From an uncultured Eubacteriales bacterium (GTDB taxonomy: Bacteria; Acidobacteriota; Aminicenantia; Aminicenantales; Aminicenantaceae), in the NCBI GenBank assembly GCA_964406575.1, contig CAYOSH010000003.1, positions 64,447 to 128,446 of the forward strand: 64,000 nucleotides of DNA, in the 5' to 3' direction. Numbering within the stretch: position 1 is the stretch's first letter; every line of letters starts with the position of its first letter. A model generated the notes under the pieces. That model ran no database searches, had not been told where the DNA came from, and saw only the letters and a program-made list of their open reading frames with translations. Below are positions 16,291-55,604 of the stretch, piece by piece. The translations under genes and the position numbers were made by a program.

Positions 16291-16304
16291 CGGCTCTTTT
16301 GATC

Positions 16305-17558: not shown

Positions 17559-17567
17559 TGTTTTTTC

Positions 17568-18041
17568 TTACTCTAAATGATCCAAAATTTCATCGATTGT
17601 TTTTTTACTCAGTTTTCCGTAGTAGTCAAAATTGACCATCATACAAGGCGCATGCTCACAAGCACCCAGGCACTCAACTGTTGTGAGCGTGAATTTTTTA
17701 TCTGAGGTTGTCTCACCCAGATCGATTCCCAGCTTATCCTTCAAGTAGTCGATCAGAGATTGTGCTCCCAAGAGAGAGCAACTCAGGTTGGAACACACCT
17801 GGATGTGATACTTTCCAACTGGCTGACGGTTGTACATGGTGTAGAATGTGACGACTTCTCTCACTTGGATGGGTTTTAGCTCCAACAGGCCGGCGAGCTG
17901 AATTTCCTCCGCAGCAGAAATATGACCAATCTCTTGCTGGACAAGATGCAGAACTGGAAGGAGAGCCGCTTTTTTTTGAGGATAGCGAGCGATAACTTCT
18001 GCTATTTTCTGTTTTGTCTGATCTGAAAATTCAGGACTCAT
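17568..18041 (-). CDS. nuoE: NADH-quinone oxidoreductase subunit E
   Basis: Start moved to MSPEFSDQTKQ (ATGA overlap with the nuoD stop). Thioredoxin-like 2Fe-2S motifs CSNLSC and VECLGACEHAPC. Confidence 0.88.
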   Translation of the reverse strand: MSPEFSDQTKQKIAEVIARYPQKKAALLPVLHLVQQEIGHISAAEEIQLAGLLELKPIQVREVVTFYTMYNRQPVGKYHIQVCSNLSCSLLGAQSLIDYLKDKLGIDLGETTSDKKFTLTTVECLGACEHAPCMMVNFDYYGKLSKKTIDEILDHLE

Positions 18042-19363
18042 CTGTCCAATTCTCCTCCAATCATGTTCAGACCGCCAAATGTCGGTATAATATCCGCAAT
18101 ATAATGACCCCGGATCATCTCCTCTAGAGCAGCAACGATATGGAAACAAGGCCCTCTGAGGTGGAGACGGTAGGGCTTATCGGTCCCGTCAGAGACAATA
18201 TAATAGCCCACTTCGCCGCTTCCCCCTTCTACGGAGAAATAAACATCTCCTTTAGGAGGGCGGATCCCATGCCCTTTCATGAAAAACTTGAAGTGATTGA
18301 TCAGACCTTCAATGCTTGTATAGGTATCTTCTTTCGGAGGGACGATGTATTTTTTCCCTTTGGTCAGGATCCGAGGGTAAATATCTTTTTCAGATCCTTC
18401 GAGATTGGGTGAGAGTTTGATCTTGGCCTCTACCTTTTTCTCTCTTGATGCTTTGATGGCTTCAGCTGGCTCAAAGACATCAGCAATAACTGCGGGAGGG
18501 GATACGGGTACTTTTTTCCGCGCCTGTTCAATGATCCTGAGGCTCTGTTCCATCTCCTTCATGCGGACCATATACCTGTCAAAGTTATCGCCATTATCTC
18601 CAAGAGGAATTTCAAAACGCACTTGATCGTATGTGCAATACGGATGTGCTTTTCGCACATCATAAGAGACTCCGCTCGCCCTCAGACAAGGGCCGGTGAA
18701 TCCATAGTTGACGGCCATCTCCGGGCTCACCACAGCGACATCCCGTGTTCTGTTCAACCATATTTTATTCTTATCCAGCAGGCCGTGGCAGTCTTTGAGC
18801 AAGGCCCGGGCGGAATTTATGGCTTTGCCCAACAAAGGATTGATCTCAGGGTGCAAATCCGCACGAACGCCTCCGATACGGATGTAGGATGTCGTCATCC
18901 GGGCTCCGGTGGTCTGTTCGATGACATTCCAGATTTCTTCTCGCGCTTGAATATAATAGAGAAAAGCGGTGAACGCTCCACATTCCATGGTCATGGCGGC
19001 AAGCGCCGTGAGGTGGTCCGAGATTCTGGAAAGCTCACTCATGATCACACGGATGAACTGAGCCCGCTCTGGGGCCTGGATGCCAAGCATCTTCTCCATG
19101 GTCATCACATAGCCCAGGTTATTGATCAAAGGAGATACATAATTCAACCTATCTGTGTAGGGGAGTAAATTGAAATATGTTTTGTGCTCGCACGTTTTCT
19201 CAAAACCTCTGTGAAGATACCCCACTTCCAACTCAGCGTTCAGGACTTTTTCGCCGTCGAGTTCGAGCATGATCCGTATCGTTCCGTGCATGGCGGGGTG
19301 CGAAGGTCCCATATTGATGAGCATACTCTCTTTGCTTGCTTCTTTCTGAATTCGGTATGTCAT
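18038..19363 (-). CDS. nuoD: NADH-quinone oxidoreductase subunit D (441 aa, with an extra Lys-rich segment)
   Basis: NMGPSHPAMHGT, LHRGFEK, and a C-terminal IPTFGGLNMIGGELDR. Confidence 0.9.
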   Translation of the reverse strand: MTYRIQKEASKESMLINMGPSHPAMHGTIRIMLELDGEKVLNAELEVGYLHRGFEKTCEHKTYFNLLPYTDRLNYVSPLINNLGYVMTMEKMLGIQAPERAQFIRVIMSELSRISDHLTALAAMTMECGAFTAFLYYIQAREEIWNVIEQTTGARMTTSYIRIGGVRADLHPEINPLLGKAINSARALLKDCHGLLDKNKIWLNRTRDVAVVSPEMAVNYGFTGPCLRASGVSYDVRKAHPYCTYDQVRFEIPLGDNGDNFDRYMVRMKEMEQSLRIIEQARKKVPVSPPAVIADVFEPAEAIKASREKKVEAKIKLSPNLEGSEKDIYPRILTKGKKYIVPPKEDTYTSIEGLINHFKFFMKGHGIRPPKGDVYFSVEGGSGEVGYYIVSDGTDKPYRLHLRGPCFHIVAALEEMIRGHYIADIIPTFGGLNMIGGELDR

Positions 19364-20696: not shown

Positions 20697-20938
20697 TGTC
20701 TTTTTATAAAGGCATAGATTTTATAAAAATAAAATGAACAATGCAATCATTTTGATATTTTTTTTACAAAAAAATTGTGGACTGCCATACAGGCGTCTTG
20801 ATAGACGCTGACAGAGCCATTTTGGACCGGAGAGATTCGACCGCTATAGAAAAAAGGCTGGAGAATTTGTTAAAATGGATGAGATCTATTCAAAGGTTGG
20901 AGTATGTTGAGTGAGAAGGATTGACCTCATCAATCGGA

Positions 20939-22558
20939 ATGAAAGATAAAGTTACGGCATTCCTTTGGCTTATCGGGCTGCTTCTCTGCGGAACTCTTTC
21001 CTCCCAGAAGTGTTCGCCGTCGAAGCAAGCTTATCCTGAGAATGTCATTCTTGTCACTCTCGATACACAGAGGCCAGATTTCATTGGCGCCTATAATCCA
21101 ACAAAGGCCTCAACACCCAATATAGACAGTCTAGCTGCAAACGGGATTTTGTTCGATAACTGTTACAGCCCTATTCCTATCACCCTCCCTGCTCATGCCT
21201 CGCTCTTTTATTCCCTCCCTCCGCATGAACTCGCACTCTACAACAACGGGCAAGTATTTAAAAACGAAAGAGATCTTGTGTCCCTTGCACAAGTATTCAA
21301 AAAAAAGGGCTTCCAAACCGCAGGATTCGTTTCTCTGGGAGTGCTCAAATCCAAATTTCGTCTGGCTGAGGGATTCGATGATTACGAGGACAAACACCCT
21401 GAAAATCGTTGGTACCTCCATGCGGAAGAGGTGAACGCAAGAGTATTTCCATGGCTGGACAAGAACAAGGAAAATCGCTTTTTCATCTGGATTCACTATT
21501 CTGATCCACATGATCCCTATGCGATCCCAAGCTTGCCTCCCGATCTTCGAATCCGTTTCAATGGCAAACCCATCTGGGATATCTGTGTCCAACGAGAAGA
21601 ACGCCTGTCCCTGCGGTTTATGCTGCACGCGGGGAAGAACACGATCGAATGCGTCACCTTGAATCCCTATCCCGATTCCCAGGACGAATTTCGCATAAGT
21701 TTAAACGAAGTTTATTATGCGCCATCAGAAGACATCAAGATCATTTATGAAGGGATGAATGTGGTCAAAAAAGACGAGCAGACCAGCCTCCTGATCAAAG
21801 AAAGAGGCAGGATCTTGATCGACAACCCCGGAAACACCCAAGAACTCCGAATGGAAGCCACCGGGAAAATATACCTGTTGGCGCAGGAAAAAGTACACGC
21901 TTATAAAGAGGAAGTGGAGTATTTGGACCGCCAGATCGGGCTGTTACTCAAGAAACTCGATCAGAGCGAGCTATTGGACAAAAGCTTGATCGTTTTGGTG
22001 GGGGACCATGGCGAGGGATTGGGTGATCATAGGACTCTTCTCGGAGAACCACACTTTGGACACATCCACTATCTGTATACAGAATATCTGAAGATCCCCC
22101 TTATCTTCTATAATCCCTATTGGGAAGAAAAAGGATCAAGAAATAGTGAGCAGACGACGATCCTCGATATTGCCCCTACGATTCTGGCCATCATGGGTTG
22201 GAAAAAAATGCCCTTTCACAAGGGATTTAACCTTCTCAAAACAGGCGAAGAGAGAACTCCGATCATATTTGGTGAAACTTACAGGCCAGAATCCACAAGA
22301 GATAGGTTTTCAGGGCTCCAATACCCATGGCATCTCATTTTCACACCTAGCCGGGATAGATTCGAGCTTTACAATATCAGGGATGATCCGGCTGAACAAA
22401 CAAATGTTTTTGTTCAAGAAAGAGAAAACCCAGATGTTGTCAAATTCCGGAAAATCGTTAAAAAGTACGCGCTCGAAATACTGAGTACAAAAAAGGATAT
22501 CGAACTAGATCCCAAAAGCCTGGAGATGTTAAGGTCCCTCGGCTACATCAAAAAATAA
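20939..22558 (+). CDS. Sulfatase-fold (alkaline-phosphatase superfamily) lipoprotein, Thr-nucleophile variant, paralog 1
   Basis: Start moved to the ATG giving MKDKVTAFLWLIGLLLCG (lipobox). LVTLDTQRPD metal site. PITLPAHASLF occupies the position of the C/S-x-P-x-R motif, with Thr codon at 21182-21184. GDHGE is present. C-terminal LRSLGYIKK. Confidence 0.8.
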   Translation: MKDKVTAFLWLIGLLLCGTLSSQKCSPSKQAYPENVILVTLDTQRPDFIGAYNPTKASTPNIDSLAANGILFDNCYSPIPITLPAHASLFYSLPPHELALYNNGQVFKNERDLVSLAQVFKKKGFQTAGFVSLGVLKSKFRLAEGFDDYEDKHPENRWYLHAEEVNARVFPWLDKNKENRFFIWIHYSDPHDPYAIPSLPPDLRIRFNGKPIWDICVQREERLSLRFMLHAGKNTIECVTLNPYPDSQDEFRISLNEVYYAPSEDIKIIYEGMNVVKKDEQTSLLIKERGRILIDNPGNTQELRMEATGKIYLLAQEKVHAYKEEVEYLDRQIGLLLKKLDQSELLDKSLIVLVGDHGEGLGDHRTLLGEPHFGHIHYLYTEYLKIPLIFYNPYWEEKGSRNSEQTTILDIAPTILAIMGWKKMPFHKGFNLLKTGEERTPIIFGETYRPESTRDRFSGLQYPWHLIFTPSRDRFELYNIRDDPAEQTNVFVQERENPDVVKFRKIVKKYALEILSTKKDIELDPKSLEMLRSLGYIKK

Positions 22559-22596
22559 ATTTTTCTTGCCACACAGGCCGGGAGGGTGTCTATAGT

Positions 22597-22668
22597 GTAA
22601 GCGCAACCTTATCTGAGCTGGCACATCACAGACCGTATCCCTAACGCCTCCGGATTAGAGATGCTTTC
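22597..22668. repeat. Possible 72-bp mini-copy of the repeat superfamily
   Basis: GTAAGCGCAACCTTATCT... at the left end and ...CCGGATTAGAGATGCTTTC at the right end resemble the family termini. The flanking 9-mers do not match. Confidence 0.35.
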
Positions 22669-22724
22669 GACCTAAAGAGAGCTCTTTGACTTATCCAGAA
22701 TTGCCAGTATAATTGGAAGTTGAA

Positions 22725-24752
22725 ATGAAGCCCGATAGACAAGAAAAAAAAATTTTTGGACAGGATTTGGACCGGGACTGTTGCCATTTACTTTTGCTGA
22801 TCCTACTTCTGCTTGTGTCCCTAAAGTTCCAGTCTTGCACGAGAGGCCCAAAAACCGAGGGCAACCTGTTCCGGATCATAGACCATTTCGAAGCTCTAGA
22901 CTTTCACGAAACTGCTATCGATGCATCCGTACTCATGCGGGGACCCAAAGATGAGCAAACACCCCTTCCCTCCCCTATTGATCCTGAATTAGCAAAATTC
23001 ATCACGGAAAACCTGAACTGGGACAACACTAACGGAAGTCCCGTCCACCCAAACAAACTCAAAATTAAAAAACGCCCCGCAAAAGGCTCAGCAAGAGGCC
23101 TCCGCTCCAAAAATGTCATTCTCGCCCCTCCTCCGACTTCCTTTTCTATCACCAAGAAAATATCCAAAAATTCGGCGCTCGAGTTTGGCTACGGAATTGT
23201 GAATGAACAGTGGGAGAACGTTAAAGGTGAAGTCTCTTTCACAATAGATATTGCAGATATCAAAACACAGACCAAACAACGTTTGTTCCACACAACACTG
23301 AATCCAGAGCTAAGAGACATGGACAAACAATGGTTTGCCGAAGAGATTGATTTGGGAGAATATGCCAAACAAAATATGACCATCACCTTCAGCACCTCTT
23401 TCAAAAATGCCGACACAAACAATTGCTATTCGGCTTGGGTGAATCCGTTATTCCGGGAAAAACAGAATAAAAAGCTAAAAATTAATGTGATACTGATATC
23501 TATGGATACACTCAGAGCCGATCACCTTGGATGTTATGGCTACACGAGGAACACGAGCCCCAATCTGGATGCGATAGCCAGGGAAAGCGTCCTTTTTAAA
23601 CAAGTTATTTCCCAGGCCCCCTACACAGTCTCATCCCACATGTCGATGCTCACATCCCTCTATCCATCCTTCCACAAAGTCAATCTGATCCAAGAAAGCA
23701 CCATGAATCCAAAAATCAACACCCTTGCCGAACTCCTCTACAACAACGGGTACCGGACATGGGCCATTGTGGGTGGCGGCCAGGTCAGCTCGGATTATGG
23801 ATTCTCTGAGGGCTTCGAAACATACATCGAATTCACCTCTCCCCACCGGGATGTTTGGAGAAAAATCCAAGAAACTATCGGCTTTATCGAAAAAGAAAAG
23901 GCCAACAATTTTTTTGTTTTTATTCATTCCTATAAACCCCATGCACCTTACAATCCTATCCCTCCGTTCGACACCATGTTCGACCCGGAATATGATGGTC
24001 CCGTATCTGGGAGCATCGAGCAGATCGAGGCCATCAACTCAGGTGAGATCGAAGTGACCCCGGATGACATCGCCCACCTTATGGCTCTGTATGACGGGGA
24101 TATTCGAGAAATGGATGACCAAATCGTGGAGCTGTATGACTACTTAAAAAAAGAAGGTTTGGATCGAAGGACTCTGGTCGTTTTCACCTCTGACCACGGA
24201 GAAGAATTCGGAGAGCACGGAAAGGTCGGGGTGCACAGCCATACAGTGTACGACGAACTCCTCCGCGTCCCTTTAATCCTCCGGCTTCCGGATAAATTGC
24301 CCCCAGGAACGACCTGGGAAGACCAAGTCCGATCGATAGACATCCTCCCTACCATATTCGACTTGATCGGGATTGATTTGAAAGAGACCCCTATCCAAGG
24401 AGAATCCCTTCTTCCTCTCATAAAGAAAAGACAAGAGGGGACGAATAGACATGCCTTTAGCGAGAGATTAGCAGCTGACGGCAATCACTACAGATCTCTG
24501 CGCACTCCTCAATTCAAGTACATTATGCAAGACAATAAAAAGAAGGGTATCGTGGACCATTTCTATTATGATCTCACAGATGATCCCCGGGAACAGAACT
24601 CGCTCAAACTTTCCCCGGACAAACTTCGAGAGATGTTCAATCAAATTCTTTTCCTAGTCGAAGAGGGAAAAAAAGTGGACACATTTCAACGGGGGAAGAA
24701 AATCGACGAAGACACGCTGGAAACCCTTAAAGCACTGGGATATATTAAATGA
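22725..24752 (+). CDS. Sulfatase-fold protein with ~250-aa N-terminal extension, Thr-nucleophile variant, paralog 2
   Basis: Signal/lipobox-like LLLLVSLKFQSC. SMDTLRADHLGCYGY. PYTVSSHMSMLTSLYP at the nucleophile position. SDHGEEFGEHG. C-terminal LKALGYIK. Confidence 0.8.
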   Translation: MKPDRQEKKIFGQDLDRDCCHLLLLILLLLVSLKFQSCTRGPKTEGNLFRIIDHFEALDFHETAIDASVLMRGPKDEQTPLPSPIDPELAKFITENLNWDNTNGSPVHPNKLKIKKRPAKGSARGLRSKNVILAPPPTSFSITKKISKNSALEFGYGIVNEQWENVKGEVSFTIDIADIKTQTKQRLFHTTLNPELRDMDKQWFAEEIDLGEYAKQNMTITFSTSFKNADTNNCYSAWVNPLFREKQNKKLKINVILISMDTLRADHLGCYGYTRNTSPNLDAIARESVLFKQVISQAPYTVSSHMSMLTSLYPSFHKVNLIQESTMNPKINTLAELLYNNGYRTWAIVGGGQVSSDYGFSEGFETYIEFTSPHRDVWRKIQETIGFIEKEKANNFFVFIHSYKPHAPYNPIPPFDTMFDPEYDGPVSGSIEQIEAINSGEIEVTPDDIAHLMALYDGDIREMDDQIVELYDYLKKEGLDRRTLVVFTSDHGEEFGEHGKVGVHSHTVYDELLRVPLILRLPDKLPPGTTWEDQVRSIDILPTIFDLIGIDLKETPIQGESLLPLIKKRQEGTNRHAFSERLAADGNHYRSLRTPQFKYIMQDNKKKGIVDHFYYDLTDDPREQNSLKLSPDKLREMFNQILFLVEEGKKVDTFQRGKKIDEDTLETLKALGYIK

Positions 24753-26365
24753 GACGAGATGGTGCATTCATATTCACTGTCATTGTTTTGATTTTTTTTA
24801 TGCTGGTCTTGAGCGCTTGTGCACCTTCCGAGAGTCCAAATGTTATCCTTATCACACTCGATACTTATCGTGCCGACTATATGAGCGCTTACAGCGCGGA
24901 GCTCGTGTCAACACCGAACCTCGATTTTCTGGCTAAAGAAGGAATTCTCTTCATCAACTGTTTCAGTCCGATCCCCATCACATTTCCCGCCCATTCCGCT
25001 CTTTTCTATTCTCAACCACCACACGAACTCAAAATATACAATAATGGAGACACTCTGAGCACTGTTGATCTCAAGTCATTGGCAGAGATCTTCAAGGACA
25101 ACGGCTACGCTACAGGTGCCTTTGTTTCACTGGGAGTGTTATTGGAACGATATGGATTGAGCAAAGGATTCAAAACGTACAGTGACCAATTTCCCAAAAC
25201 GCGCTGGTATCTGACAGCAGGGGAGGTCAATTCCCGGGTATTCCCCTGGCTGGGGAAACAGGGAGAAGGGCATTTCTTTGCATGGATCCATTATTCTGAC
25301 CCGCATGATCCTTACGCACCACCGGATCTCGCCAACGATCTGAAGCTCAGCCTGAATGGCAGCCCTTTCAAAGAGCTTTGTTTGCAAAAAAACCAAGTGG
25401 AAGACATCGCCCTCTCCTTGCATAAAGGAGAAAATATCCTCCGTTTGGAAGTGGCAAACGAATTTGTTCAAAAAGAGGATGCTTTCCTGGCCAGATTAGT
25501 CCAACTTGAGTTGGTTCCCTCTTCACACGTGGAGGAGACGACTCTCCATTTCGGTCGAGGATGGCACAACACCAATAAGGGAAAGCGGATGATGCATTTC
25601 AGGAACAACGCCATTCTGAAGATCCAGAGCCCTAAAGATCAAGAGGGAGTGATCCTGAGGCTTAGGGGCAAGCTGGACATGAGAACAGAAGGAAACAGAG
25701 CATTGTACAGACGGGAGGTGGAATATCTTGACCGTGAGATCGGATCTCTGTTCGATGAGCTCAAAAGACTCGATCTTTTTGACAAAACGATCATCGTCGC
25801 CGTAGGCGATCACGGGGAAGGGTTGGGCGAATATCTCTCATCAAATGGAGCCCCCCATTTCGGTCATATCCACTATCTATATTCGGTCTATCTCAAGGTG
25901 CCGTTGGCCATCTGGAATCCTTCTTCGAAGCGCAAAAACCAGGTCATCTCACGTCCAGCCACCTTGATGGATATCTCTCCGACTGTGCTCGCCCTCATGG
26001 ATTGGAGTATTCCCTCCCAGATGAGGGGGAGAAACTTGCTGGGTGGAAAAAATGGAGACAACACGCCCAGAGAATTATTCTTCGAGACCTATGCACCTGA
26101 AGCCGACTTCAATAGATTTGCCATCCTTGCCTTTCCGCATCATTTGATCTACACGCTGGAGACAAATGTCTATGAACTCTACGATATGTCCAGCGACCCC
26201 AAGGAAAAGACAGATCTCTTTTCCATTCAGGAGCAAAATCCCAAAATTAGGGATCTCAAGCAGAGACTGGACATCTATACGCGAACAGCCCTCGCCAACA
26301 GATCCGTCCAAAAAAAAGACGAGAAGACTCTCGAGATATTGAAAGCTCTAGGGTACATCAAGTGA
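24749..26365 (+). CDS. Sulfatase-fold lipoprotein, Thr-nucleophile variant, paralog 3
   Basis: ATGA overlap with paralog 2. Lipobox LVLSAC. ITLDTYRADY, PITFPAHSALF, GDHGE. C-terminal LKALGYIK. Collinear with paralog 1, including a ~120-aa insert. Confidence 0.8.
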   Translation: MRRDGAFIFTVIVLIFFMLVLSACAPSESPNVILITLDTYRADYMSAYSAELVSTPNLDFLAKEGILFINCFSPIPITFPAHSALFYSQPPHELKIYNNGDTLSTVDLKSLAEIFKDNGYATGAFVSLGVLLERYGLSKGFKTYSDQFPKTRWYLTAGEVNSRVFPWLGKQGEGHFFAWIHYSDPHDPYAPPDLANDLKLSLNGSPFKELCLQKNQVEDIALSLHKGENILRLEVANEFVQKEDAFLARLVQLELVPSSHVEETTLHFGRGWHNTNKGKRMMHFRNNAILKIQSPKDQEGVILRLRGKLDMRTEGNRALYRREVEYLDREIGSLFDELKRLDLFDKTIIVAVGDHGEGLGEYLSSNGAPHFGHIHYLYSVYLKVPLAIWNPSSKRKNQVISRPATLMDISPTVLALMDWSIPSQMRGRNLLGGKNGDNTPRELFFETYAPEADFNRFAILAFPHHLIYTLETNVYELYDMSSDPKEKTDLFSIQEQNPKIRDLKQRLDIYTRTALANRSVQKKDEKTLEILKALGYIK

Positions 26366-26401: not shown

Positions 26402-26836
26402 TTATTTTTTAGAGAGGGAATGATAGATTTTTGATGGAATCCGGAAGAGCAGCCTGTTGAGAAGCCTGAAGACGAATGGGCGTTGTTTTAAGGCGGGAAT
26501 CTCCAATTCATGCTCGGCAAGATACCTTTGCACGATAGGACATCCCAGGCATTCCAAGCAGTAAGAGCTGAGTTTTCCCCGGCTCAAATAACGCCGAATT
26601 TCCTGGACCTCCGGCGAATTCCAAGCTTTCGCATATTCAGGAAAAGAATAACCCACGGGATTTCCATAACAACAGGGAAGGATCCCCCGTCTCAAAATAT
26701 AGAGATTTTCCCAAGGCTCCCGGCAGAGGGGCATGCCGGATTCACTGATATCACTATCGAATTCTTCACCATTTACACTTTGGCTCTGTTCCATTCGATC
26801 TGTATCCTCAAATAGGCTTTTTTTTTCTTTGACCAT
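26402..26836 (-). CDS. SPASM/twitch-like Cys-rich domain protein (144 aa). Likely the detached C-terminal domain of the upstream radical-SAM gene.
   Basis: LCREPWENLYILRRGILPCCYG and YCLECLGCP fit the SPASM pattern (CxxPW...G.v.PCC ... CxxCxxC). The start is 14 nt after the radical-SAM stop, in the -1 frame. An A9 run follows codon 3. Confidence 0.6.
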   Translation of the reverse strand: MVKEKKSLFEDTDRMEQSQSVNGEEFDSDISESGMPLCREPWENLYILRRGILPCCYGNPVGYSFPEYAKAWNSPEVQEIRRYLSRGKLSSYCLECLGCPIVQRYLAEHELEIPALKQRPFVFRLLNRLLFRIPSKIYHSLSKK

Positions 26837-26850
26837 CGATTCGATCTTTT

Positions 26851-28869
26851 TTAAAACCGCTGAGTTTCCAAATCCACAGCTTCTTTTCCTCTAAATCGGT
26901 CCTCATCACGCGTTCCAAAACTGAACTGATTGGCGACAGGAACGCCATACTTTTTCGAGTAGATCTCGCACTTTTTAAAGATATCCTCCAGTTCCTCGCG
27001 CGACAGAAGCTCATTCTTGTAATCGAAGAGATACCCCCCCCTTTCGTGCTCGATTTTGGGTTTATTCAAGACGAGCAAAGGACGCAGGATCAATGCATCG
27101 GCTTCGATCTTCTGGCACAAACGGAAATAGTCCTCCAGGTCATCCCTGTTCACCCTCATGGGCATAAAAACCATATGTATCTTGGGGAGATTCCCCTTAT
27201 TTTTCCTTTCTTGGTTCAAGAGAACGAGGTTGGGGATAATCGATTCCCACCGGTCATTCCTTATCTTGGCATAGGTCTCCTTTGTCGCAGCGTCCAGGGA
27301 TATATACAGATATATGGGTTTTCCTGCCAGAGCTTTGATCGTTCTTTGTGTGAATGCCTGGCCGTTTGTGGATATTTCCATGATTTTTTTGTGTCTCGTG
27401 CAATGCTCCAAGATCTGCTCGAACCTCGGATGTAAAAGCGGTTCACCGATGGAGCAGTTGATGAGGAGGCGAGCTGACCGGAAAAAAGGCCCGTACTCCT
27501 CGAAGGTCTTCTCGTCGACGACGGTTTCGATATGCCCTTCTTCTTCCTCCTTCATCCAATCCCAGAGACAGTACACACACGGTGGCTTCATGTTGCATTT
27601 GGCAAGAAGATCTATTCCCAGGTTGAGCGGATAGGAGTTCAACGCTGTTTTTCCCTGTTTCCGTTCCTCATAATTCAACATGGCATTTTTGTGGAAAAAG
27701 CGGAATTCCTCATGGATCTCGTCCTCATCATGGAACTGGATCGGCGAGACCTTGATGCCCAATTCTCTCGGATCCTCGTTGTGGTATTTTTCTGGGAACA
27801 CTCTGTTCAACGACAAAACAAGCTCATGCCCGCTGTGTTCCTTCGGAATAGTCGGGATGGAAGGAAGAGGGAAACTGTAGAAATTCCAGCTTTTGATGAG
27901 AGGATAAGCCCCAAGCTCCTTGCCATCCAGCTCTATTTGGAGGGCCTGTTTGTAATTGGCGTATTCGGAGAAGGCGTAGACAGAGATGAATTTGTGTGAT
28001 TGCAACTGGCACGTGGGCAAAAACACGCGGGCCCTTTGTTTCATCCATGCGTAAGGGAAGAATTCATCATGCTCCCATTCATGCCACCCAAAGTCGTAGA
28101 GCGAACCCTCCTGGTCGGGCAGAACAACCTTAATATTTTTGAGGAAGATACCCAATTTTCTCGAATCGCCACTGAGATCTGGCGGGAAAACACGGTTCAG
28201 CCGCAGTTCTATTTCGAAAGATGTCGAGGAAAAATCGAGAAGGAAATAGTACTTCGTTTCCCCGGGCAGGATCTCTCTCGAGCTGACGGATTTGCCCTCT
28301 GATAAAATCGTCAAGACAGGATTCTCGGCGCCTTCATAAGGGTGCCCTGCCTCGATGAGTAAGTATTTCTCTGTATCTTTGGGGAGGTCGGAAAAAAGAC
28401 ATTTCGCCTTTTTCTTCATCCAGCGGGACGCAATACGGTTTGGGTCTTCACTAGGAGTTTCGGGCAAATACCACCCATCCAGGAAGACTCCGACTTCCGA
28501 AGGGGTGAGAACCTCGACATCTCTCACCATTATTCCCATGTCTCTGGGATCGCCTTCAACCTGGAACGTGCGGTCCAGTTTGATATCGACGTTGAGATCG
28601 CCTGATTCGCTAAAGGCAAATATATATGGGCTGAATGCTGCTTCGACCTCCCGGCTCCCGATCTTCCGGTTGTTCACAAAAACGTCCATGACCGGGATCT
28701 TTTTGCCCGGGAAAGAATGGCCCGCCGTGATGCGAAGGAATTGCTTGCCTGGGTTTGGATAGTCTTTAAGAGATACCGCCGCCTCCTTCGACATCCACCT
28801 GAACGGGCCCTTGTCATCCCGTTCTTCTACATACCAACCGTCAAGGTACTCTTTGTGTGGGGCTTTCAT
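26851..28869 (-). CDS. Radical-SAM-like protein with three N-terminal ~120-aa repeats and a Cx5Cx2C cluster motif
   Basis: Residues 11-121, 131-249 and 260-379 each carry GW(Y/H)..E...(F)RWM.K.A ... D.R.(M/L)G(I). Then come CNMKPPCVYC (nt 27568-27597), IGEPLLHP, ISTNGQ and ISLDAATKETYAKIR, which are typical radical-SAM core motifs. Confidence 0.7.
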   Translation of the reverse strand: MKAPHKEYLDGWYVEERDDKGPFRWMSKEAAVSLKDYPNPGKQFLRITAGHSFPGKKIPVMDVFVNNRKIGSREVEAAFSPYIFAFSESGDLNVDIKLDRTFQVEGDPRDMGIMVRDVEVLTPSEVGVFLDGWYLPETPSEDPNRIASRWMKKKAKCLFSDLPKDTEKYLLIEAGHPYEGAENPVLTILSEGKSVSSREILPGETKYYFLLDFSSTSFEIELRLNRVFPPDLSGDSRKLGIFLKNIKVVLPDQEGSLYDFGWHEWEHDEFFPYAWMKQRARVFLPTCQLQSHKFISVYAFSEYANYKQALQIELDGKELGAYPLIKSWNFYSFPLPSIPTIPKEHSGHELVLSLNRVFPEKYHNEDPRELGIKVSPIQFHDEDEIHEEFRFFHKNAMLNYEERKQGKTALNSYPLNLGIDLLAKCNMKPPCVYCLWDWMKEEEEGHIETVVDEKTFEEYGPFFRSARLLINCSIGEPLLHPRFEQILEHCTRHKKIMEISTNGQAFTQRTIKALAGKPIYLYISLDAATKETYAKIRNDRWESIIPNLVLLNQERKNKGNLPKIHMVFMPMRVNRDDLEDYFRLCQKIEADALILRPLLVLNKPKIEHERGGYLFDYKNELLSREELEDIFKKCEIYSKKYGVPVANQFSFGTRDEDRFRGKEAVDLETQRF

Positions 28870-28931
28870 CGTTTAACCGGAGGCTTATTGTAATTCGCAC
28901 CTATTCCTTTGTCAATTTTCAGAATTGGCAC

Positions 28932-29099
28932 GGAAGAATCCTTATTTCCGTGATAAAGGCATTAGACGCAAAAAGGAGCGAGTCACTGTCCTTATGAGTC
29001 GGATGGTGGTGGGTGGGGGGTCTTCGACGAATATGGACTGAGACGAACTCCTGCTATTATCATTTGACTTGATAGCATCACGGAAATAAGGATGCTTCC
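28932..29099 (+). mobile_element. MITE-like repeat, family A copy 2 (168 bp)
   Basis: GGAAGAATCCTTATTTCCGTGAT ... ATCACGGAAATAAGGATGCTTCC. A perfect 9-bp duplication AATTGGCAC lies at 28923-28931 and 29100-29108. Confidence 0.88.
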
Positions 29100-33707: not shown

Positions 33708-33897
33708 ATCCCAGAGATGCGTGAAAGACTATCATATAATAAAGCCGCTGAAGGAGTGGACTTGGGCTTTTCTTGACATCAAAGGCACATTATGTTACCA
33801 AATCTTGTTCTGTATCAATGACAAGCGTGGAGGCCACGCTCTTTCTAAAAGTCATGGTGTTGACAGAAAGAATCCCCAAAAGGGTCCTTTGGGAGGT

Positions 33898-34911
33898 ATG
33901 AAGAACACAAGAATCATACTCATGCTTCTTTTCCTTGGATTGGGTATTGGACTCCATTCCTTTCCGAAACCACAGCCGTACTCTGACCAAGAATGTCTGA
34001 CCTGTCACGCTAAAATTAACCTTGCCCAGGTGCTTGGAGACGGTTCCGTCCGATCTCTATTCGTGGATCCCGAGAAATGGTCACAGGATGTGCATCAAAA
34101 AGGGCACCTCTCCTGCGTGGACTGTCACACTGCAGCCAATCCCTATGTGCATTTTCGCGAAGGTTTTCTCGATGTCGACTGCGCCAAATGCCACCCCGAA
34201 CAAGCCGAAGAATACCTCAAGAATGTCCATTATGAATTTACGCCCATATCTCCAGATAAGGAGCTTCCTCTTTGTTATGACTGCCACACCAAACATCATA
34301 TCCTGCGTCACGACGATCCGTCCGCATCCATAAACAAAAAAAACATCGAAGCCACTTGCGGAGAATGCCATCCGGAAGTGATGGTCAAAAGTATTCTCAA
34401 AGGCGCTTCTTTAGGAAAAATCTCGGGTCATCGAAAGGGTGATATTTCAGAAAAATTCGACATGGCCACTTGTATCAAATGTCATAATCCAGCGCATGGA
34501 ACCAATACGGTTTACCAAGACTTCTGCACGCGCTGCCATAATCCGGAAAAAACAGCGGACATCGCACTAGGCCCCACTCACTTGAATTCGGCCAAGTGGA
34601 TGGGATTCAACACCGCAGGAGATAGCTTATCTCTCCTTCTTATTCTGGGGACTTTTGTCTTCCTAGGCTACAAATCTCGGAAAACCTTTGCAGGGAAATT
34701 GAGAGATTGGCACGACTCCATGAAAATCGAGAAGGAACCGAGGCAAGGCGACAAGGAAGAGGCGAATCGGGATAACATCCATGAAGGAGACGAGATCAAA
34801 GAGGAAAAAGAAGGAGACGCAGAAAGAGAAGAAAAAAAGGCGGAAGAAAAAGGAAGCGAACTCGATAGCGCTGCTAACACAGAGCACAAACAAGAAAACG
34901 ATGAGCACTAA
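33898..34911 (+). CDS. Heptahaem c-type cytochrome with a C-terminal TM anchor and an acidic/Lys-rich tail
   Basis: Start moved to MKNTRIILMLLFLGLGIG (GGGAGG RBS). Seven CxxCH motifs: CLTCH, CVDCH, CAKCH, CYDCH, CGECH, CIKCH, CTRCH. The TM helix is LSLLLILGTFVFLGY. Confidence 0.85.
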   Translation: MKNTRIILMLLFLGLGIGLHSFPKPQPYSDQECLTCHAKINLAQVLGDGSVRSLFVDPEKWSQDVHQKGHLSCVDCHTAANPYVHFREGFLDVDCAKCHPEQAEEYLKNVHYEFTPISPDKELPLCYDCHTKHHILRHDDPSASINKKNIEATCGECHPEVMVKSILKGASLGKISGHRKGDISEKFDMATCIKCHNPAHGTNTVYQDFCTRCHNPEKTADIALGPTHLNSAKWMGFNTAGDSLSLLLILGTFVFLGYKSRKTFAGKLRDWHDSMKIEKEPRQGDKEEANRDNIHEGDEIKEEKEGDAEREEKKAEEKGSELDSAANTEHKQENDEH

Positions 34912-35491
34912 ATTGAAGAAATATGGGATGCTTTTTGACCTCAGGAAGTGTATCGGCTGCAACACATGTGCCATCGTGTGCAAGAGTGAAAACGATGTCC
35001 CCCTCAGTGTTTGGCGATCTTGGGTCAAAAAGGTAGAAAAGGGGCTGTATCCCCATGTGGCAGAAGTTGCTCTACCTATCGTGTGTAACAACTGTGAGAA
35101 TCCGATCTGTGTCACAGTCTGTCCTGTCAATGCAGGGATCAAACGCGCTGACGGCATTGTGTATATCGATCCGCACCGGTGCATAGGCTGTCGCTATTGC
35201 ATGGCATCCTGCCCCTACGGAGTGAGGTATATCAATCCTCGGAAAAAGATCGCAGAGAAGTGTTATTGGTGCCATCACAGAGTCGATGCAGGCCTTCTGC
35301 CAGCATGCGTTTCTGCCTGTCCCACCGGCGCCATCCTGTTCGGCGATCTGAACGATCCCGAGAGTGAGATCACTCGGGCGATTGCCAAAAATGCCGTTCA
35401 GGTCATCAAACCCGAAATGGGAACGCAACCCCAGACATATTACATCGGCTTGGATATCGAAGCCGTAGAGGCGGTGAAGAAAGAGGAGTGA
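34901..35491 (+). CDS. 4Fe-4S ferredoxin-type subunit (PsrB/NrfC/DmsB family)
   Basis: Start moved to MSTKLKKYGMLFDLRKCIGCNTC. Cluster motifs CIGCNTCAIVC, CNNCENPICVTVCP, CIGCRYCMASCP and CYWC...CVSACP. Confidence 0.88.
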   Translation: MSTKLKKYGMLFDLRKCIGCNTCAIVCKSENDVPLSVWRSWVKKVEKGLYPHVAEVALPIVCNNCENPICVTVCPVNAGIKRADGIVYIDPHRCIGCRYCMASCPYGVRYINPRKKIAEKCYWCHHRVDAGLLPACVSACPTGAILFGDLNDPESEITRAIAKNAVQVIKPEMGTQPQTYYIGLDIEAVEAVKKEE

Positions 35492-36387
35492 TGGAGATAC
35501 AGGTCCTTTACAACATCAATCACCAGGAGGCTTTTGGCCTTTTTATAGCGATTTATTTCTACCTCACCGGCTTGAGCGCCGGCTCTTTCATACTCTCTAC
35601 CCTGTCTTATGGCTTCGGCATGGAGCAGTACAAACCTCTGGGAAAAGTGGGCGTTGTTCTCGCTACGGTCCTTTTGGTGATCGCTCCTTTCTTCCTGCTC
35701 TTCCATATCGGAGCCCCATACAGAGCCTGGCATCTTTTTGTCTATCTTAACTGGTCCTCACCGATAACCTGGGGTTCTTTTTTACTGGTGCTTTATCCCA
35801 TTAACTGCATCATCTACGGCTTTTTTATGTTCAAGAACAATCTCAAGCTCACTCGGCTGTTTGGCTTCATCGGCATTCCTCTGGCTATTTCTGTCCATGG
35901 ATACACGGGATTCATCCTGGCCTTCGGGAAAGCCAGAGCTCTTTGGAATACAGCCTTAATGCCCATTCTTTTCCTTGCATCAGCCATCGTGTCTGGGATA
36001 GCCCTAATGATCCTTGTCTGTATCATCAAAGGCCGTTATTTTTCCAAGGAAAAAAAGATCGACCGGTCATTGATATTCAACCTGGCTCGACTGCTGGCAT
36101 GGATGATCGTCTTTGATCTATTCCTGGTTGTGAGCGATCTTCTCGTCTTGTCTATCTCTCACTCGGATGCGCAGGCCGTTTATCAGCTTCTTCTCGGAGG
36201 AAATTTCAGCATTCTTTTCATAATCGTGGAGAATGTATTGGGCAAGATCATCCCGTTCATTCTCCTTGTCGTCCCCAGGTTCAGGACAATGTTCACCGTT
36301 ACCGTGGCCTCCATCTTGGTGGTCATCGGCATCTTTGTCATGAGATATGTTGTTGTTTTAGCTGGCGAATTTCTTCCTCTGTTATAG
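35488..36387 (+). CDS. NrfD/PsrC-family integral membrane quinone-interacting subunit
   Basis: 299 aa and ~8 TM. Position and overlaps are typical of the membrane subunit of complex iron-sulfur molybdoenzymes. Confidence 0.8.
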   Translation: MMEIQVLYNINHQEAFGLFIAIYFYLTGLSAGSFILSTLSYGFGMEQYKPLGKVGVVLATVLLVIAPFFLLFHIGAPYRAWHLFVYLNWSSPITWGSFLLVLYPINCIIYGFFMFKNNLKLTRLFGFIGIPLAISVHGYTGFILAFGKARALWNTALMPILFLASAIVSGIALMILVCIIKGRYFSKEKKIDRSLIFNLARLLAWMIVFDLFLVVSDLLVLSISHSDAQAVYQLLLGGNFSILFIIVENVLGKIIPFILLVVPRFRTMFTVTVASILVVIGIFVMRYVVVLAGEFLPLL

Positions 36388-36395
36388 ATAAAAAA

Positions 36396-38699
36396 ATGCT
36401 GCGAAAAAGGTACTCACGGCGACGGTTCATGAGAACCGGAATCACATGGACTATGGGTTTATCGGCCGGGCATCACCTCATGTCCGGACCAAACAAACAG
36501 AAAATGGATGCGGTCTCTCGCACATCGCTCAAATCCCTGGCATCGATCCCGACCACATGTACACAGTGCGCTGCTGGATGTGGAGTTCTGGCCTACTTAA
36601 ACGGCAGCGAGCTCGTCCAGGTTCTGGGAAATCCTGAGCATCCGATCAATCATGGAGGAATCTGTGCCAGAGGAGTCGCGGGGATAAACCTTGCCAACGA
36701 TCCCGAACGATTGCTATATCCCTTGAAAAGAATCGGTCCCAGAAATGACGGCCCCTGGACACGCATCACCTGGGATGAAGTGTACACTGTCTTGAGCCGC
36801 CGGGTCAAAGAATCCAACCGAGAAAACCGGGCCAATGAATGTGTTTGGGACATTGGCGAAAGCGATCCCCTTCTCAGCCGTTTTATGACCGCTATGGGAT
36901 CACACAACATCATCGATAGAAATCTCCTTAAGAATAGAAATCGAGATCTTGCCTTGCGCTCCATGACAACCCATACCTCTCTCCTCGAAGATGTGGGACA
37001 GAGTCGGACTATCTTAAACTTTGGAGCCAATCCCTATGCAAATCACGAACGTTTTCTGCCCATAAGCCGACAGCTCGTAGATGCCCGCATCAATAAAGGC
37101 GCAAGGCTCATCACCTTTGATGTCAGGATGTCGGAAACCGCCGCACAGAGCGACGAATGGCTTCCCATTCGGCCGGGAACAGACGCCCTGGTCGCTTTGG
37201 CGATGGCACGTGTCATCCTGGAAAAGAATCTCGCCGATAACACATTTATCCGTTCAAGGACAAACGTCTCCATAGATCAGCTGAGCCGTCATCTTGCTCC
37301 ATATTCACCGGAAGTCGCGGAGCGGGAAAGTGGTGTGAAAGCTGCGGTGATCGAGAGACTTGCTGTAGCATTTGCATCTCAGAAACCCTCTGTGGCCATA
37401 TTTGGAGGGGGTATCTGCGATCACGAAAACGGAACTCAAAACGTCAGGTGTATCTCACTCCTCAATTGGATCACAGGGAATTTGGGAAAAGAAGGGGGTG
37501 TCCTTGTTCCCTCTGCGCCAGGACCTCTTTCGAATAACTCATGGAACGAACAAAACTTTTCGAGGAAAACAGAAGACGGGAGTGTGACCTTTTCCGACCT
37601 CTTCGGAAAACAACTCAAGGTGAATACCTATATTGCATACAAGGCCAATCCTGCTTACTCAGAGCCAGACAACACAAAAGCAACGCGTTTTCTTATGGAC
37701 CAAAACAATGTGCCCTTTCTTGTCGTGATCGACACTCACTTCACAGAAACAGCCAAACTTGCTGACCTCGTTCTCCCTGCAGCTTCCTATCTTGAAGGAT
37801 GGGGAGTGGAGATCAGATCTCTCATCGATGGGAGGCATGTCCTTAATCTCAGACAGCCGGTTGTCTCACTCCTGAGCAGCGCCCAAACTCTACGTTTACC
37901 TGACTTTGAACCAGGAAAACTTCTCGAACCTTCCTTTCGTCCCAGAGGCGAAGCCAAGGAAATCGGAAACGTGTGTCTAGAGCTTGCCCGAAGAGTGGGA
38001 GAAGACATAAAACATCATTTGCCTTTTAAAGACACAAAAGATTTTATCACACACCTTGTCACATCCCTTCCCGATTGTGATTTCAACACCTTAAAAACGA
38101 AGGGCTACTGGATGGACAGACCCTCTAAAACCGACTCCCGAATACCACAGATGAATAAGTCAAATGGCACATTGAACAGTGTCTCGATCTATTCTCAATC
38201 CCTTGAAGATAAATTCGGTGGTTCATTGCCTTCCTATGTTCCACTCAAGTCACTCAAGGGGTTAAAACCCCATGAGTTCATCCTTACGACGTACAAATCA
38301 AACCTCTGGGCTAGAGGAGCAGCGAACAGCAAGTGGGCACGGGAAATATTTCACGAAAACTGCCTGTGGATCAATCATCAGGCAGCGGAAAAACTCGGTG
38401 TCGCTAACGGAGAGAGAGTGCGTGTCGTTTCGTCTCTGGGAGCGCTTGAGGTCCGCGTGTGTACCACCGGGCGCATCCATCCCCAATCACTGGCTCTTGC
38501 GGAAGGGTTGGGGCATGATGCCATCGGGAATGTTGCCAAAGCCAGACGTTTCAAGAGTTCTGATCTGGACACAACTCTCATCTGGTGGACGAAAGCTGGC
38601 CATGGCGTAAATCCCTTTAGTATCATCGAAAACGAAAGGGACCCCTTTGGGGGCGGTTATGCCCTCAAGGATACAGTCGTCCGTATAGAAAAGATATAA
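36396..38699 (+). CDS. Tat-exported molybdopterin-oxidoreductase catalytic-type subunit (Psr/Phs/Ttr-like); substrate unknown
   Basis: Twin-arginine signal SRRRFMRTG. FS0 motif CTQCAAGCG...GGICARG. MopB-type segments LNFGANPYANH and EWLPIRPGTDALVALAMA. C-terminal beta-barrel-type domain (GERVRVVSSLGALEVRV). Confidence 0.82.
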   Translation: MLRKRYSRRRFMRTGITWTMGLSAGHHLMSGPNKQKMDAVSRTSLKSLASIPTTCTQCAAGCGVLAYLNGSELVQVLGNPEHPINHGGICARGVAGINLANDPERLLYPLKRIGPRNDGPWTRITWDEVYTVLSRRVKESNRENRANECVWDIGESDPLLSRFMTAMGSHNIIDRNLLKNRNRDLALRSMTTHTSLLEDVGQSRTILNFGANPYANHERFLPISRQLVDARINKGARLITFDVRMSETAAQSDEWLPIRPGTDALVALAMARVILEKNLADNTFIRSRTNVSIDQLSRHLAPYSPEVAERESGVKAAVIERLAVAFASQKPSVAIFGGGICDHENGTQNVRCISLLNWITGNLGKEGGVLVPSAPGPLSNNSWNEQNFSRKTEDGSVTFSDLFGKQLKVNTYIAYKANPAYSEPDNTKATRFLMDQNNVPFLVVIDTHFTETAKLADLVLPAASYLEGWGVEIRSLIDGRHVLNLRQPVVSLLSSAQTLRLPDFEPGKLLEPSFRPRGEAKEIGNVCLELARRVGEDIKHHLPFKDTKDFITHLVTSLPDCDFNTLKTKGYWMDRPSKTDSRIPQMNKSNGTLNSVSIYSQSLEDKFGGSLPSYVPLKSLKGLKPHEFILTTYKSNLWARGAANSKWAREIFHENCLWINHQAAEKLGVANGERVRVVSSLGALEVRVCTTGRIHPQSLALAEGLGHDAIGNVAKARRFKSSDLDTTLIWWTKAGHGVNPFSIIENERDPFGGGYALKDTVVRIEKI

Positions 38700-38727
38700 A
38701 ATCGCGAGGTTTTGGAAAACTAGGAGT

Positions 38728-55436: not shown

Positions 55437-55604
55437 GGAAGCATCCTTATTTCCGTGATGCTCTCAAGTCAAATGATAATAGCAGGAGTTCGTTACAGTC
55501 CACATTCGTCAAATACCCCCCACCCACCATCATCCGACTCATAAGGACAGTGACTCGCTCTTTTTTGCCTCTAATGCCCTTATCACGGATATAAGGATGC
55601 TGAC
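55437..55604 (-). mobile_element. MITE-like repeat, family A copy 4 (168 bp, inverted relative to copies 1-3)
   Basis: GGAAGCATCCTTATTTCCGTGATG ... TATCACGGATATAAGGATGCTGAC. Flanking 9-mers TCCATCCTA and TTCCTCCTA match 7/9. Confidence 0.85.

Follow-up and report, generated by a model that had tools for sequence, protein, structure and literature searches.

What does a protein do that joins three copies of an N-terminal module to a radical-SAM core with an unusual cysteine spacing? The gene that raises this question lies on the minus strand, at positions 26,851–28,869, of a 64,000-nucleotide stretch of DNA from an uncultured salt-marsh bacterium (this whole stretch is called the window below). 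It starts with ATG and encodes 672 amino acids that comprise three predicted beta-sandwich modules, followed by a linker helix and then a partial TIM barrel of the radical-SAM type. The original prediction had described the product as a radical-SAM-like enzyme whose architecture is not that of a characterised enzyme. A literature search for the combination of this repeat with a radical-SAM core returned no paper, none of the NCBIfam models reaches its cut-off, and the source databases name the protein just “radical SAM protein”; the family is thus uncharacterised, as had been supposed.

Radical-SAM core and its cysteine loop

The radical-SAM core occupies approximately residues 405–652 (26,914–27,657, minus strand) and contains the GGE-like IGEP (residues 474–477, invariant), ISTNGQ and ISLDAAT..TYAKIR motifs. 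The Pfam model Radical_SAM (PF04055) matches residues 424–584 with 42.4 bits, above its cut-off of 29.5, and the best NCBIfam similarities of the protein are to families of the SPASM/twitch type, all below cut-offs. In the AF2 model of the complete protein (pLDDT 88.5, pTM 0.81), residues 416–647 form alternating beta and alpha elements. The radical-SAM structures that Foldseek retrieved with this model include those of SuiB, SkfB, CteB, BlsE and viperin-like enzymes, with GH2-type beta-sandwich/TIM-barrel proteins ranking beside them in the list. The sequence profiles and the structural matches therefore agree with the radical-SAM assignment, and the IGEPLLHP, ISTNGQ and ISLDAATKETYAKIR motifs previously read in the catalytic half are present and conserved in the family alignment. 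Two further cysteines of the core are also retained, Cys472 being invariant and Cys585 at least 90% conserved.

The cluster motif, CNMKPPCVYC from residue 425 (C425-NMKPP-C431-VY-C434; 27,568–27,597, minus strand), has the Cx5Cx2C spacing originally reported for it, and the same spacing was found in all 121 family proteins examined. The outcome named beforehand as speaking against this assignment, a standard CxxxCxxC elsewhere and a non-conserved triad, was not observed: the search for CxxxCxxC in the 672-aa protein and the 121 family proteins found none, leaving Cx5Cx2C as the sole cluster motif, and each of 57 aligned sequences has C425, C431 and C434. When aligned with the CNxxCxxC of canonical relatives, the triad falls in the homologous position with a two-residue gap, which shows that Cx5Cx2C is the canonical motif lengthened by two inserted residues, “PP”. 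The label “non-canonical” is accurate in that the spacing differs from CxxxCxxC, but precedent exists in HcgA and in Megacluster-4-10, the latter listed with Cx5Cx2C in RadicalSAM.org among other catalogued CxnCx2C spacings (PMC9477430). Since the superfamily admits variant spacings (PMC9477430), the motif is a variant of CX3CX2C and gives no ground for exclusion from the radical-SAM enzymes.

The non-canonical spacing, together with NCBIfam matches that all remain below cut-offs, might also be expected of a degenerate, non-catalytic radical-SAM-like protein with a lengthened Cys loop and no cluster. This is very improbable, given that the Cys triad, the GGE-like motif and the other SAM-binding motifs do not vary even among sequences with as little as about 37% identity, that other CxnCx2C spacings are on record, and that HcgA, which has Cx5Cx2C, cleaves SAM and carries a bound [4Fe-4S] cluster (PMC10100467). 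The family, with its PP-inserted motif beside canonical sisters, offers a natural experiment on the tolerance of the cluster loop.

A small cysteine-rich partner ORF

The radical-SAM gene is followed, after 14 nt and in a different frame, by an ORF of 144 aa (26,402–26,836, minus strand) that the original prediction had overlooked. A terminator-like hairpin with a T-run (26,320–26,333, minus strand; consensus match only) lies 3′ of this ORF, and a sigma-70-like promoter, TTGACA-17-TACAAT (28,887–28,915, minus strand; 11 of 12 positions, likewise a consensus match only), lies approximately 18 nt 5′ of the radical-SAM start codon, which suggests that the pair is transcribed independently of the lpd-like gene upstream. 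Exact matches to the radical-SAM gene occur in two metatranscriptome contigs.

The small ORF encodes a stand-alone Cys-rich domain of twitch/SPASM-like character. Cys38, 55, 93 and 99 are 100% conserved, Cys56 is conserved in 99% and Cys96 in 43% of the homologues, giving the pattern C-x16-C...C-x5-C with C-x2-(C/S)-x2-C spacing at Cys93–99; the C-terminal tail, NR..F..P, is conserved as well. SPASM domains hold two auxiliary clusters; their seven-Cys motif (CX9-15GX4C...CX2CX5CX3C...C) has no counterpart domain in the 672-aa chain, and the small ORF conserves only the Cys38/55/56/93/99 set. Its profile matches fall short of thresholds (19.7 bits against a cut-off of 21.5 for Pfam SPASM, PF13186; 23.6 bits, below cut-off, for the twitch region of NF033640), and BLASTP links it to the C-terminus of the fused protein P0144 (E 4e-26) and to the Pfam-SPASM-positive region of P0214 (E 3e-12).

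The ORF lies directly downstream of the radical-SAM gene in 63 of the 65 species loci, the contig ending at the radical-SAM gene in the other two, and it is also present in four loci examined by hand. A domain of the same type is in-frame with the core in 11 loci of distant lineages and in P0144. In view of this near-constant succession of the two genes in the 65 genomes, and of their fusion in distant lineages, the locus is best described, at the level of sequence, as a putative two-gene operon for a heteromeric, two-subunit radical-SAM/twitch enzyme of the SPASM/twitch clade, the subunits of which would form a complex. The small subunit is probably a twitch-type domain supplied in trans, which relatives carry fused and which may bind an auxiliary cluster; twitch domains, such as those of BtrN and MoaA, are shortened SPASM-like domains that come after the barrel and have three or four conserved Cys and one auxiliary cluster. 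The large enzyme is thus probably incomplete alone, and the 144-aa ORF is its conserved partner. The two-gene enzyme is confined to uncultured Aminicenantes and Acidobacteriota, abundant bacteria of sediments.

An A9 run at the start of the small ORF, the 14-nt separation of two ORFs in different frames and the existence of fused homologues raise the suspicion that the split is a frameshift in the A-rich junction of a once-fused radical-SAM–SPASM gene, that is, an artefact or a pseudogene. Against this stand 287 stand-alone homologues, the 120 listed of which are 113–162 aa long and have their own start codons; the retention of the split in dozens of species, whose junctions differ and in some cases are ATGA overlaps; the contigs of three independent metagenome runs that span the radical-SAM gene and its junction to the next ORF with zero indels; and the strong conservation that both parts still display. 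A frameshift or assembly error is accordingly extremely improbable and is effectively refuted by the stand-alone homologues, the synteny in 65 genomes and the three assemblies. The split subunit beside fused orthologues provides a clean system for studying the contribution of the twitch domain to radical-SAM catalysis.

N-terminal repeats and the candidate substrate

The HMM delimits three modules of approximately 125 aa on the minus strand: repeat 1 (residues 5–125; 28,495–28,857) and repeat 2 (residues 126–253; 28,111–28,494), both of type A (“AGHSFP”), and repeat 3 (residues 255–384; 27,718–28,107), of type B (“FSEYANYKQ”). These limits bear out the three copies at first placed at residues 11–121, 131–249 and 260–379. 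In pairwise BLASTP comparisons, repeat 1 is 30% identical to repeat 2 (E 4e-24) and 22% identical to repeat 3 (E 9e-9). The GW(Y/H)..E....(F)RWM...A start and D.R.LG(I/V) end, which the earlier reading had picked out as GW(Y/H)..E....(F)RWM and D.R.(M/L)G(I/V), are conserved columns of a 40-repeat alignment. The “triple” repeat holds for this protein but not as a family trait, the copy number among relatives ranging from 1 to 5; the type B module is the copy always next to the core and the sole one retained in single-repeat relatives.

The repeat sequence has no match in Pfam or the PDB. Its AF2 model (pLDDT 96) is a beta-sandwich, with CBM36, CBM35, CBM6, CBM29 and BcsB as top PDB fold matches; the similarity to the CBM folds is moderate (TM 0.45–0.63, E 5e-5 to 1e-3), and the meprin MAM domain and a lambda tail-fibre are in the same list. 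The repeat is therefore predicted to be a CBM6/35/36-like beta-sandwich, in keeping with the binding modules originally proposed.

The module is widespread: a profile search recovered 3764 cluster representatives. The sampled carriers include GT-C, GT4 and Wzy-type glycan enzymes and other radical-SAM/SPASM proteins; of ten multi-TM carriers sampled, eight belong to PMT_2, GT22 or Wzy_C. The GT4 fusions include a single chain of GT4, repeat, Cx5Cx2C radical-SAM and SPASM domains, and one further fusion involves a sulfotransferase/methyltransferase. The ~125-aa family, which numbers thousands of cluster representatives and lacks a Pfam model, merits definition.

These associations fit a large glycan, one of the two kinds of substrate (glycan or protein) suggested earlier, and a glycan is the best-supported guess. 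In the proposed mechanism, C425, C431 and C434, in the loop lengthened by Pro-Pro, would ligate the [4Fe-4S] cluster that cleaves SAM, and the four invariant cysteines of the small subunit would serve as ligands of one auxiliary [4Fe-4S] cluster, this subunit docking on the open side of the barrel and completing the active site. In the cytoplasm, the beta-sandwich modules may bring in a cell-envelope glycan polymer or glycoconjugate precursor; the absence of an N-terminal signal peptide from the 672-aa sequence fits a cytoplasmic enzyme. The 5′-deoxyadenosyl radical would then take hydrogen from a sugar C–H, the auxiliary cluster handling the electron, to give an oxidation or an epimerisation-type modification. 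Taken as a whole, the explanation that a two-gene radical-SAM/twitch enzyme with CBM-like modules acts on an envelope glycan is, on balance, probable. Several observations count against the glycan: the CBM similarity is moderate and protein-binding beta-sandwiches occur in the same list; the module is also found on a Ser/Thr kinase; and the repeat is probably periplasmic in the GT-C and Wzy-type proteins but must be cytoplasmic here. Beyond the small ORF, the radical-SAM loci have no glycan-biosynthesis gene as a constant neighbour, and the surroundings of the fused-type and GT-fused relatives are uninformative in this respect, most neighbours lacking annotation or the contigs being of insufficient length.

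Protein binding is another role of beta-sandwiches, and the repeats might instead recognise a protein, making this a peptide- or protein-modifying radical-SAM enzyme of the RiPP or cross-linking type. The radical-SAM structures closest to the core (SuiB, SkfB, CteB) are peptide maturases, as are several of the weak NCBIfam matches, and protein-binding domains are among the fold matches of the beta-sandwich. This alternative is nevertheless unlikely: neither an RRE domain nor a conserved precursor-like small ORF was found, the one small ORF that is conserved being that of the Cys-rich twitch domain, and the repeat partners among sampled carriers are mostly glycan enzymes.

A different protein substrate is suggested by the neighbourhood. 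Three sulfatase-family genes are convergent to the two-gene operon in the window; about half of the 65 loci have a sulfatase-like gene as the next one beyond the small ORF; in Vicinamibacterales this gene follows immediately and in the same direction; and one is also found near the fused form in locus L009. Since anSMEs belong to the SPASM clade too, the pair could be imagined as an anSME-like maturase that oxidises an active-site residue of these “sulfatase-like” enzymes of the alkaline phosphatase superfamily before their export. Such a role is decidedly unlikely, because the neighbours carry T-x-P-x-H (PITLPSH / PITFPAH) where formylglycine sulfatases have C/S-x-P-x-R; the Thr nucleophiles of this superfamily, as in NPP and PEtN-transferase-type enzymes, are not known to need modification. 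In Vicinamibacterales the neighbours are LtaS/EptA-like multi-TM proteins whose motif differs, so that there is no common recognition site, and TIGR03942, the model for anSMEs, is absent from the matches of the 672-aa protein. Furthermore, no sulfatase-like gene occurs in the fetched flanks (up to 8 kb on each side) of loci L003, L004, L016, L018 and L023 or of nearly all fused-type loci. With T-x-P-x-H neighbours and an adjacency lost in many lineages, the anSME-like role is rejected as the main explanation. It is quite improbable that the pair installs a new modification on T-x-P-x-H enzymes, for example conversion of the active-site Thr to a keto form as a Thr-type counterpart of formylglycine. 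The repeat is absent from the neighbouring sulfatase-like proteins. Genes for T-x-P-x-H sulfatase-like enzymes adjoin the pair in many Aminicenantes and Acidobacteriota.

Few radical-SAM enzymes are known to act on polymeric glycans, and none is known with tandem CBM-like targeting modules. Should the glycan reading hold, this family and its larger sister clade with the canonical motif would constitute a new class of envelope-polysaccharide tailoring enzymes.

Relation to known systems

The enzyme shares with the SPASM/twitch enzymes (BtrN, anSME, SuiB, SkfB, CteB, BlsE and MoaA) a partial TIM-barrel core, a GGE-like motif and a Cys-rich domain, here a putative auxiliary-cluster domain, that opens with C-x12-G-x3-C (LCxEPW...G..PC); some 250–290 columns align when the AF2 model is laid over SuiB, SkfB and BlsE. 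Unlike them, it has this domain on a separate polypeptide, a Cx5Cx2C loop and one to five N-terminal CBM-like modules in place of an RRE or an absent N-terminal domain, and it reaches the cut-off of no curated family. The uncharacterised canonical relatives P0182, P0243 and P0131 have the same repeat, a homologous core with the common motifs xSxDAAxxxTYxxIR and F.YK.Q, and a 4-Cys C-terminal domain, but they are single-chain proteins with a fused SPASM domain and CNxxCxxC without the PP insertion.

The literature search yielded a single Cx5Cx2C radical-SAM enzyme that has been studied by experiment, HcgA (HmdB), the radical-SAM enzyme of the FeGP cofactor. It is described as similar to HydE, HydG and BioB (PMC10100467). 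Apart from the spacing it differs from the split enzyme, having neither repeat nor twitch partner and not being described as SPASM/twitch-like. No HcgA-type family is among the NCBIfam matches of the 672-aa protein, the significant similarities of which are all of the SPASM/twitch type, and the common Cx5Cx2C is most likely convergent.

The anSMEs and AtsB (TIGR03942) resemble the split enzyme as SPASM-clade radical-SAM proteins with adjacent sulfatase-family genes, but they are single-chain, have CxxxCxxC and two auxiliary clusters, and the neighbours of the split enzyme lack C/S-x-P-x-R. The CBM6/35/36 modules have the beta-sandwich fold that is predicted for the repeat, the repeat having no sequence match to a Pfam or PDB family. 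Its occurrence on PMT_2, GT22 and Wzy-type enzymes parallels the CBMs borne by EmbC/AftD-type GT-C enzymes; in contrast to these CBM-like C-terminal domains of GT-C proteins, the repeat is found here in what appears to be a cytoplasmic radical-SAM enzyme.

The radical-SAM subunit and its cluster motif

The radical-SAM gene was found as predicted, at 26851..28869 on the minus strand, encoding 672 aa, and the three N-terminal modules of its product are genuine homologues, with 23-31% identity in direct alignment and BLASTP E-values of 4e-24 for repeat 1 versus repeat 2 and 9e-9 for repeat 1 versus repeat 3. An HMM built from the three repeats places them at residues 5-125, 126-253 and 255-384, close to the boundaries first proposed. 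In the radical-SAM family, the number of copies varies from 1 to 5, even between fairly close relatives, and the copy adjacent to the core is the type B variant in every case. The core matches Pfam Radical_SAM at residues 424-584 (42.4 bits vs a gathering score of 29.5). In the full-length AF2 model (pLDDT 88.5, pTM 0.81), three beta-sandwiches are followed by a long helix (383-404), an alternating beta/alpha barrel and a beta-hairpin with a helix, and the chain ends at the point where SPASM enzymes run on into the auxiliary domain. The radical-SAM structures matched by Foldseek include SuiB, SkfB, CteB, BlsE and viperin-like enzymes; the GH2-type proteins ranking beside them reflect the generic combination of a beta-sandwich with a TIM barrel. 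The solved structures closest in sequence are those of TYW1 and viperin, at marginal E-values. None of the NCBIfam models came near its own cut-off against the large subunit, the best being the uncharacterised "tungsten cofactor oxidoreductase radical SAM maturase" (69.8 bits vs a cut-off of 380).

The CNMKPPCVYC motif was confirmed, starting at residue 425 (nt 27568-27597). A database search yielded 202 relatives, mainly from Candidatus Aminicenantes and Acidobacteriota MAGs, for which "radical SAM protein" is the sole source label, bearing out the view that this is not a characterised enzyme. The pattern C-N-[IMVL]-x-P-x-C-[VS]-Y-C is present in 121/121 sequences examined, and CxxxCxxC was found nowhere in the same set (0/121). 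In a 57-sequence alignment with identity down to about 38%, C425, C431 and C434 are invariant, as are the GGE-like G475-E476-P477, N502-G503-Q504 and S524-L525-D526. Neither of the features that would have counted against the original prediction, a standard motif elsewhere and a non-conserved triad, is present. Distant relatives with the same N-terminal module and the canonical CNxxCxxC exist; when the family is aligned to these, all three cysteines coincide, and the motifs differ by an insertion of two residues, "PP", between the first cysteine and the second. The Cx5Cx2C spacing has precedent: HcgA (HmdB) carries CX5CX2C, and it both cleaves SAM and binds a [4Fe-4S] cluster (PMC10100467), and RadicalSAM.org clusters span spacings from CX4 to CX11, including one CX5CX2C megacluster (PMC9477430). 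Two other cysteines of the large subunit, Cys472 (nt about 27454-27456), invariant in the subfamily within "NCS(I/F)GEP" directly before the GGE-like motif, and Cys585 (nt about 27115-27117), conserved there in at least 90% of sequences, are not conserved across the wider clade.

A twitch-like partner encoded by a separate gene

A 144-aa ORF at 26402-26836 on the minus strand, absent from the original prediction, lies 14 nt downstream of the radical-SAM gene in another frame. It scores 19.7 bits against Pfam SPASM, just below the cut-off of 21.5, and has a further match to NCBIfam NF033640, in the twitch region of that model. A sigma-70-like promoter (TTGACA-17-TACAAT, a strong match) is predicted just upstream of the radical-SAM start codon, and the small ORF is succeeded by a terminator-like hairpin; the two signals together suggest a two-gene operon. 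In the loci of four relatives inspected by hand, the small ORF comes directly after the radical-SAM gene, with an ATGA start/stop overlap in two of them. The same order holds for 63 of the 65 genome loci compared at species level, the two exceptions being contigs that stop at the radical-SAM gene; no other neighbour of the radical-SAM gene is universally conserved.

Core and small-ORF domain share one reading frame in 11 of the 65 loci (Holophagales, Thermoanaerobaculia, other Acidobacteriota, WOR-3, B38 and two archaeal-labelled MAGs), all with a single repeat. The fused relative P0144 (754 aa) comprises two repeats, a Cx5Cx2C core, a low-complexity linker and the small-ORF domain, its C-terminus being 48% identical to the small ORF (E 4e-26); the small ORF also aligns with the part of P0214 that is positive for Pfam SPASM (E 3e-12). 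Used as a query, the small ORF yielded 287 homologues. The 120 listed are stand-alone proteins (113-162 aa, some named "SPASM domain-containing protein" by NCBI), and among them Cys38, 55, 93 and 99 are 100% conserved, Cys56 99% and Cys96 43%. This is a twitch-like set, distinct from the SPASM signature of seven Cys and predicted to suffice for a single auxiliary [4Fe-4S] cluster. Fusion is seen both in the remoter relatives with the canonical motif and in the most divergent Cx5 lineages, so the simplest reading is that the split is derived in Aminicenantes and Vicinamibacterales. On a Woesearchaeota-labelled contig, B12-binding radical-SAM genes (L065 6088-8022 and 9975-11942) lie on both sides of a fused single-repeat form; its assignment to archaea may stem from mis-binning or from horizontal transfer.

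CBM-like repeats and their carriers

Searches of the repeat against Pfam and PDB sequences, including a profile search, gave no match. The proposed beta-sandwich fold is supported by a very confident all-beta AlphaFold2 model from a 40-repeat alignment (pLDDT 96, pTM 0.88), whose top Foldseek PDB matches are CBM36, CBM35, CBM6 and CBM29, with porphyran-, alginate- and pectate-binding CBMs and BcsB carbohydrate-binding domains also among the best; the matches are of moderate strength (TM 0.45-0.63, E 5e-5 to 1e-3). When 1.84 billion cluster representatives were searched with a profile of the repeat, 3764 carriers reached E <= 1e-3, and the repeat is therefore a large domain family without a Pfam model. 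Sampled carriers include radical-SAM proteins with the identical Cx5Cx2C motif, canonical-motif ones with a fused SPASM domain, P0214, which joins a GT4 glycosyltransferase, repeat, Cx5Cx2C radical-SAM core and SPASM domain in one chain, a second GT4 fusion, a sulfotransferase/methyltransferase fusion and a Ser/Thr kinase; among multi-TM carriers, 8/10 sampled have PMT_2 (GT-C), Glyco_transf_22 or Wzy_C. The identity of these carriers is the main, circumstantial evidence for a glycan-recognition unit.

Several genomes encode separate ORFs of ~300-350 aa with a single C-terminal repeat 3-4 kb from the radical-SAM gene (L016 13776-14657; L032 3899-4948; L045 4309-5256; L053 286-1260), and in L006 and L008 the gene adjoining the repeat-bearing radical-SAM gene also has the repeat. 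In two MAG contigs, L061 (7920-10510) and L073 (7823-9949), the repeat region of the radical-SAM gene is split into several short ORFs in different frames; these are pseudogenes or else stem from homopolymer errors in long-read assembly.

Genomic neighbourhood and possible function

On its upstream side, the operon is preceded by genes for an lpd-like flavoprotein and a CarboxypepD_reg outer-membrane barrel and by a cluster for a cytochrome/NrfD/molybdopterin oxidoreductase; this synteny, the convergent sulfatase-family genes included, is repeated in many Aminicenantes. The locus is flanked by this multihaem cytochrome, 4Fe-4S, NrfD and molybdopterin oxidoreductase cluster (33721-40020) and a nuo (complex I) cluster (about 14743-19363), an arrangement also seen in relatives. 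A dispersed element of the MITE/REP-like kind, ~170 nt long and bounded by 23-nt terminal inverted repeats, GGAAG(A/C)ATCCTTATTTCCGTGAT, occurs at 28932-29099, immediately upstream of the radical-SAM promoter, at about 1357-1525 and about 55437-55604, with a partial copy at 43953. Salt-marsh metagenome contig depth reaches ~2400 over 28939-29000 vs ~20 on either side, and this interval is where many contigs break.

A two-subunit radical-SAM/twitch enzyme is the best-supported reading. The foremost rival is a peptide or protein maturase; protein-binding beta-sandwiches (meprin MAM domain, lambda tail fibre) stand among the same Foldseek matches of the repeat as the carbohydrate-binding modules. 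Next comes a maturase of the sulfatase-like neighbours, a role tested because anaerobic sulfatase-maturating enzymes are SPASM enzymes. Three tandem sulfatase-family (alkaline-phosphatase superfamily) genes on the plus strand (20921-22558, 22713-24752 and 24749-26365), at least one with a lipoprotein signal, converge on the operon over 20921-26365, and such adjacency is recurrent. However, at the position aligning precisely with C/S-x-P-x-R of solved sulfatases they carry T-x-P/S-x-H (PITFPAH, PITLPSH, YTVSSH), the PITLPSH type being found in neighbours in >25 genomes; in Vicinamibacterales, the pair is followed by one or two co-directional multi-TM LtaS/EptA-like genes with a different motif (L044 4928-7468; L047 10074-12548; L056 9763-14617); and many of the relatives' loci examined have no sulfatase-family neighbour, so this role is unlikely. 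Each LtaS/EptA-like protein has an extra C-terminal beta-rich domain. A degenerate protein ranks third, with the invariant triad and SAM-binding motifs counting against it, and a frameshift artefact last: contigs of three independent salt-marsh metagenome runs have no indels in the region, and the contig of one run has zero differences over the whole stretch. Two metatranscriptome contigs match the radical-SAM gene exactly.

For the two-subunit enzyme, the architecture and the split-partner relationship appear very probable. Its CBM-like modules at the N-terminus would direct the enzyme to a cytoplasmic glycan polymer or glycoconjugate, a glycan substrate having roughly even chances. More tentatively, by analogy with twitch enzymes, the chemistry might be of the H-abstraction/oxidation or epimerisation type. 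The family is uncharacterised and confined to uncultured lineages, and it unites an unusual trio of features, namely tandem CBM-like modules, a PP-inserted cluster loop and a trans-acting twitch domain, each of which is a variation on known radical-SAM themes and not a new kind of system.
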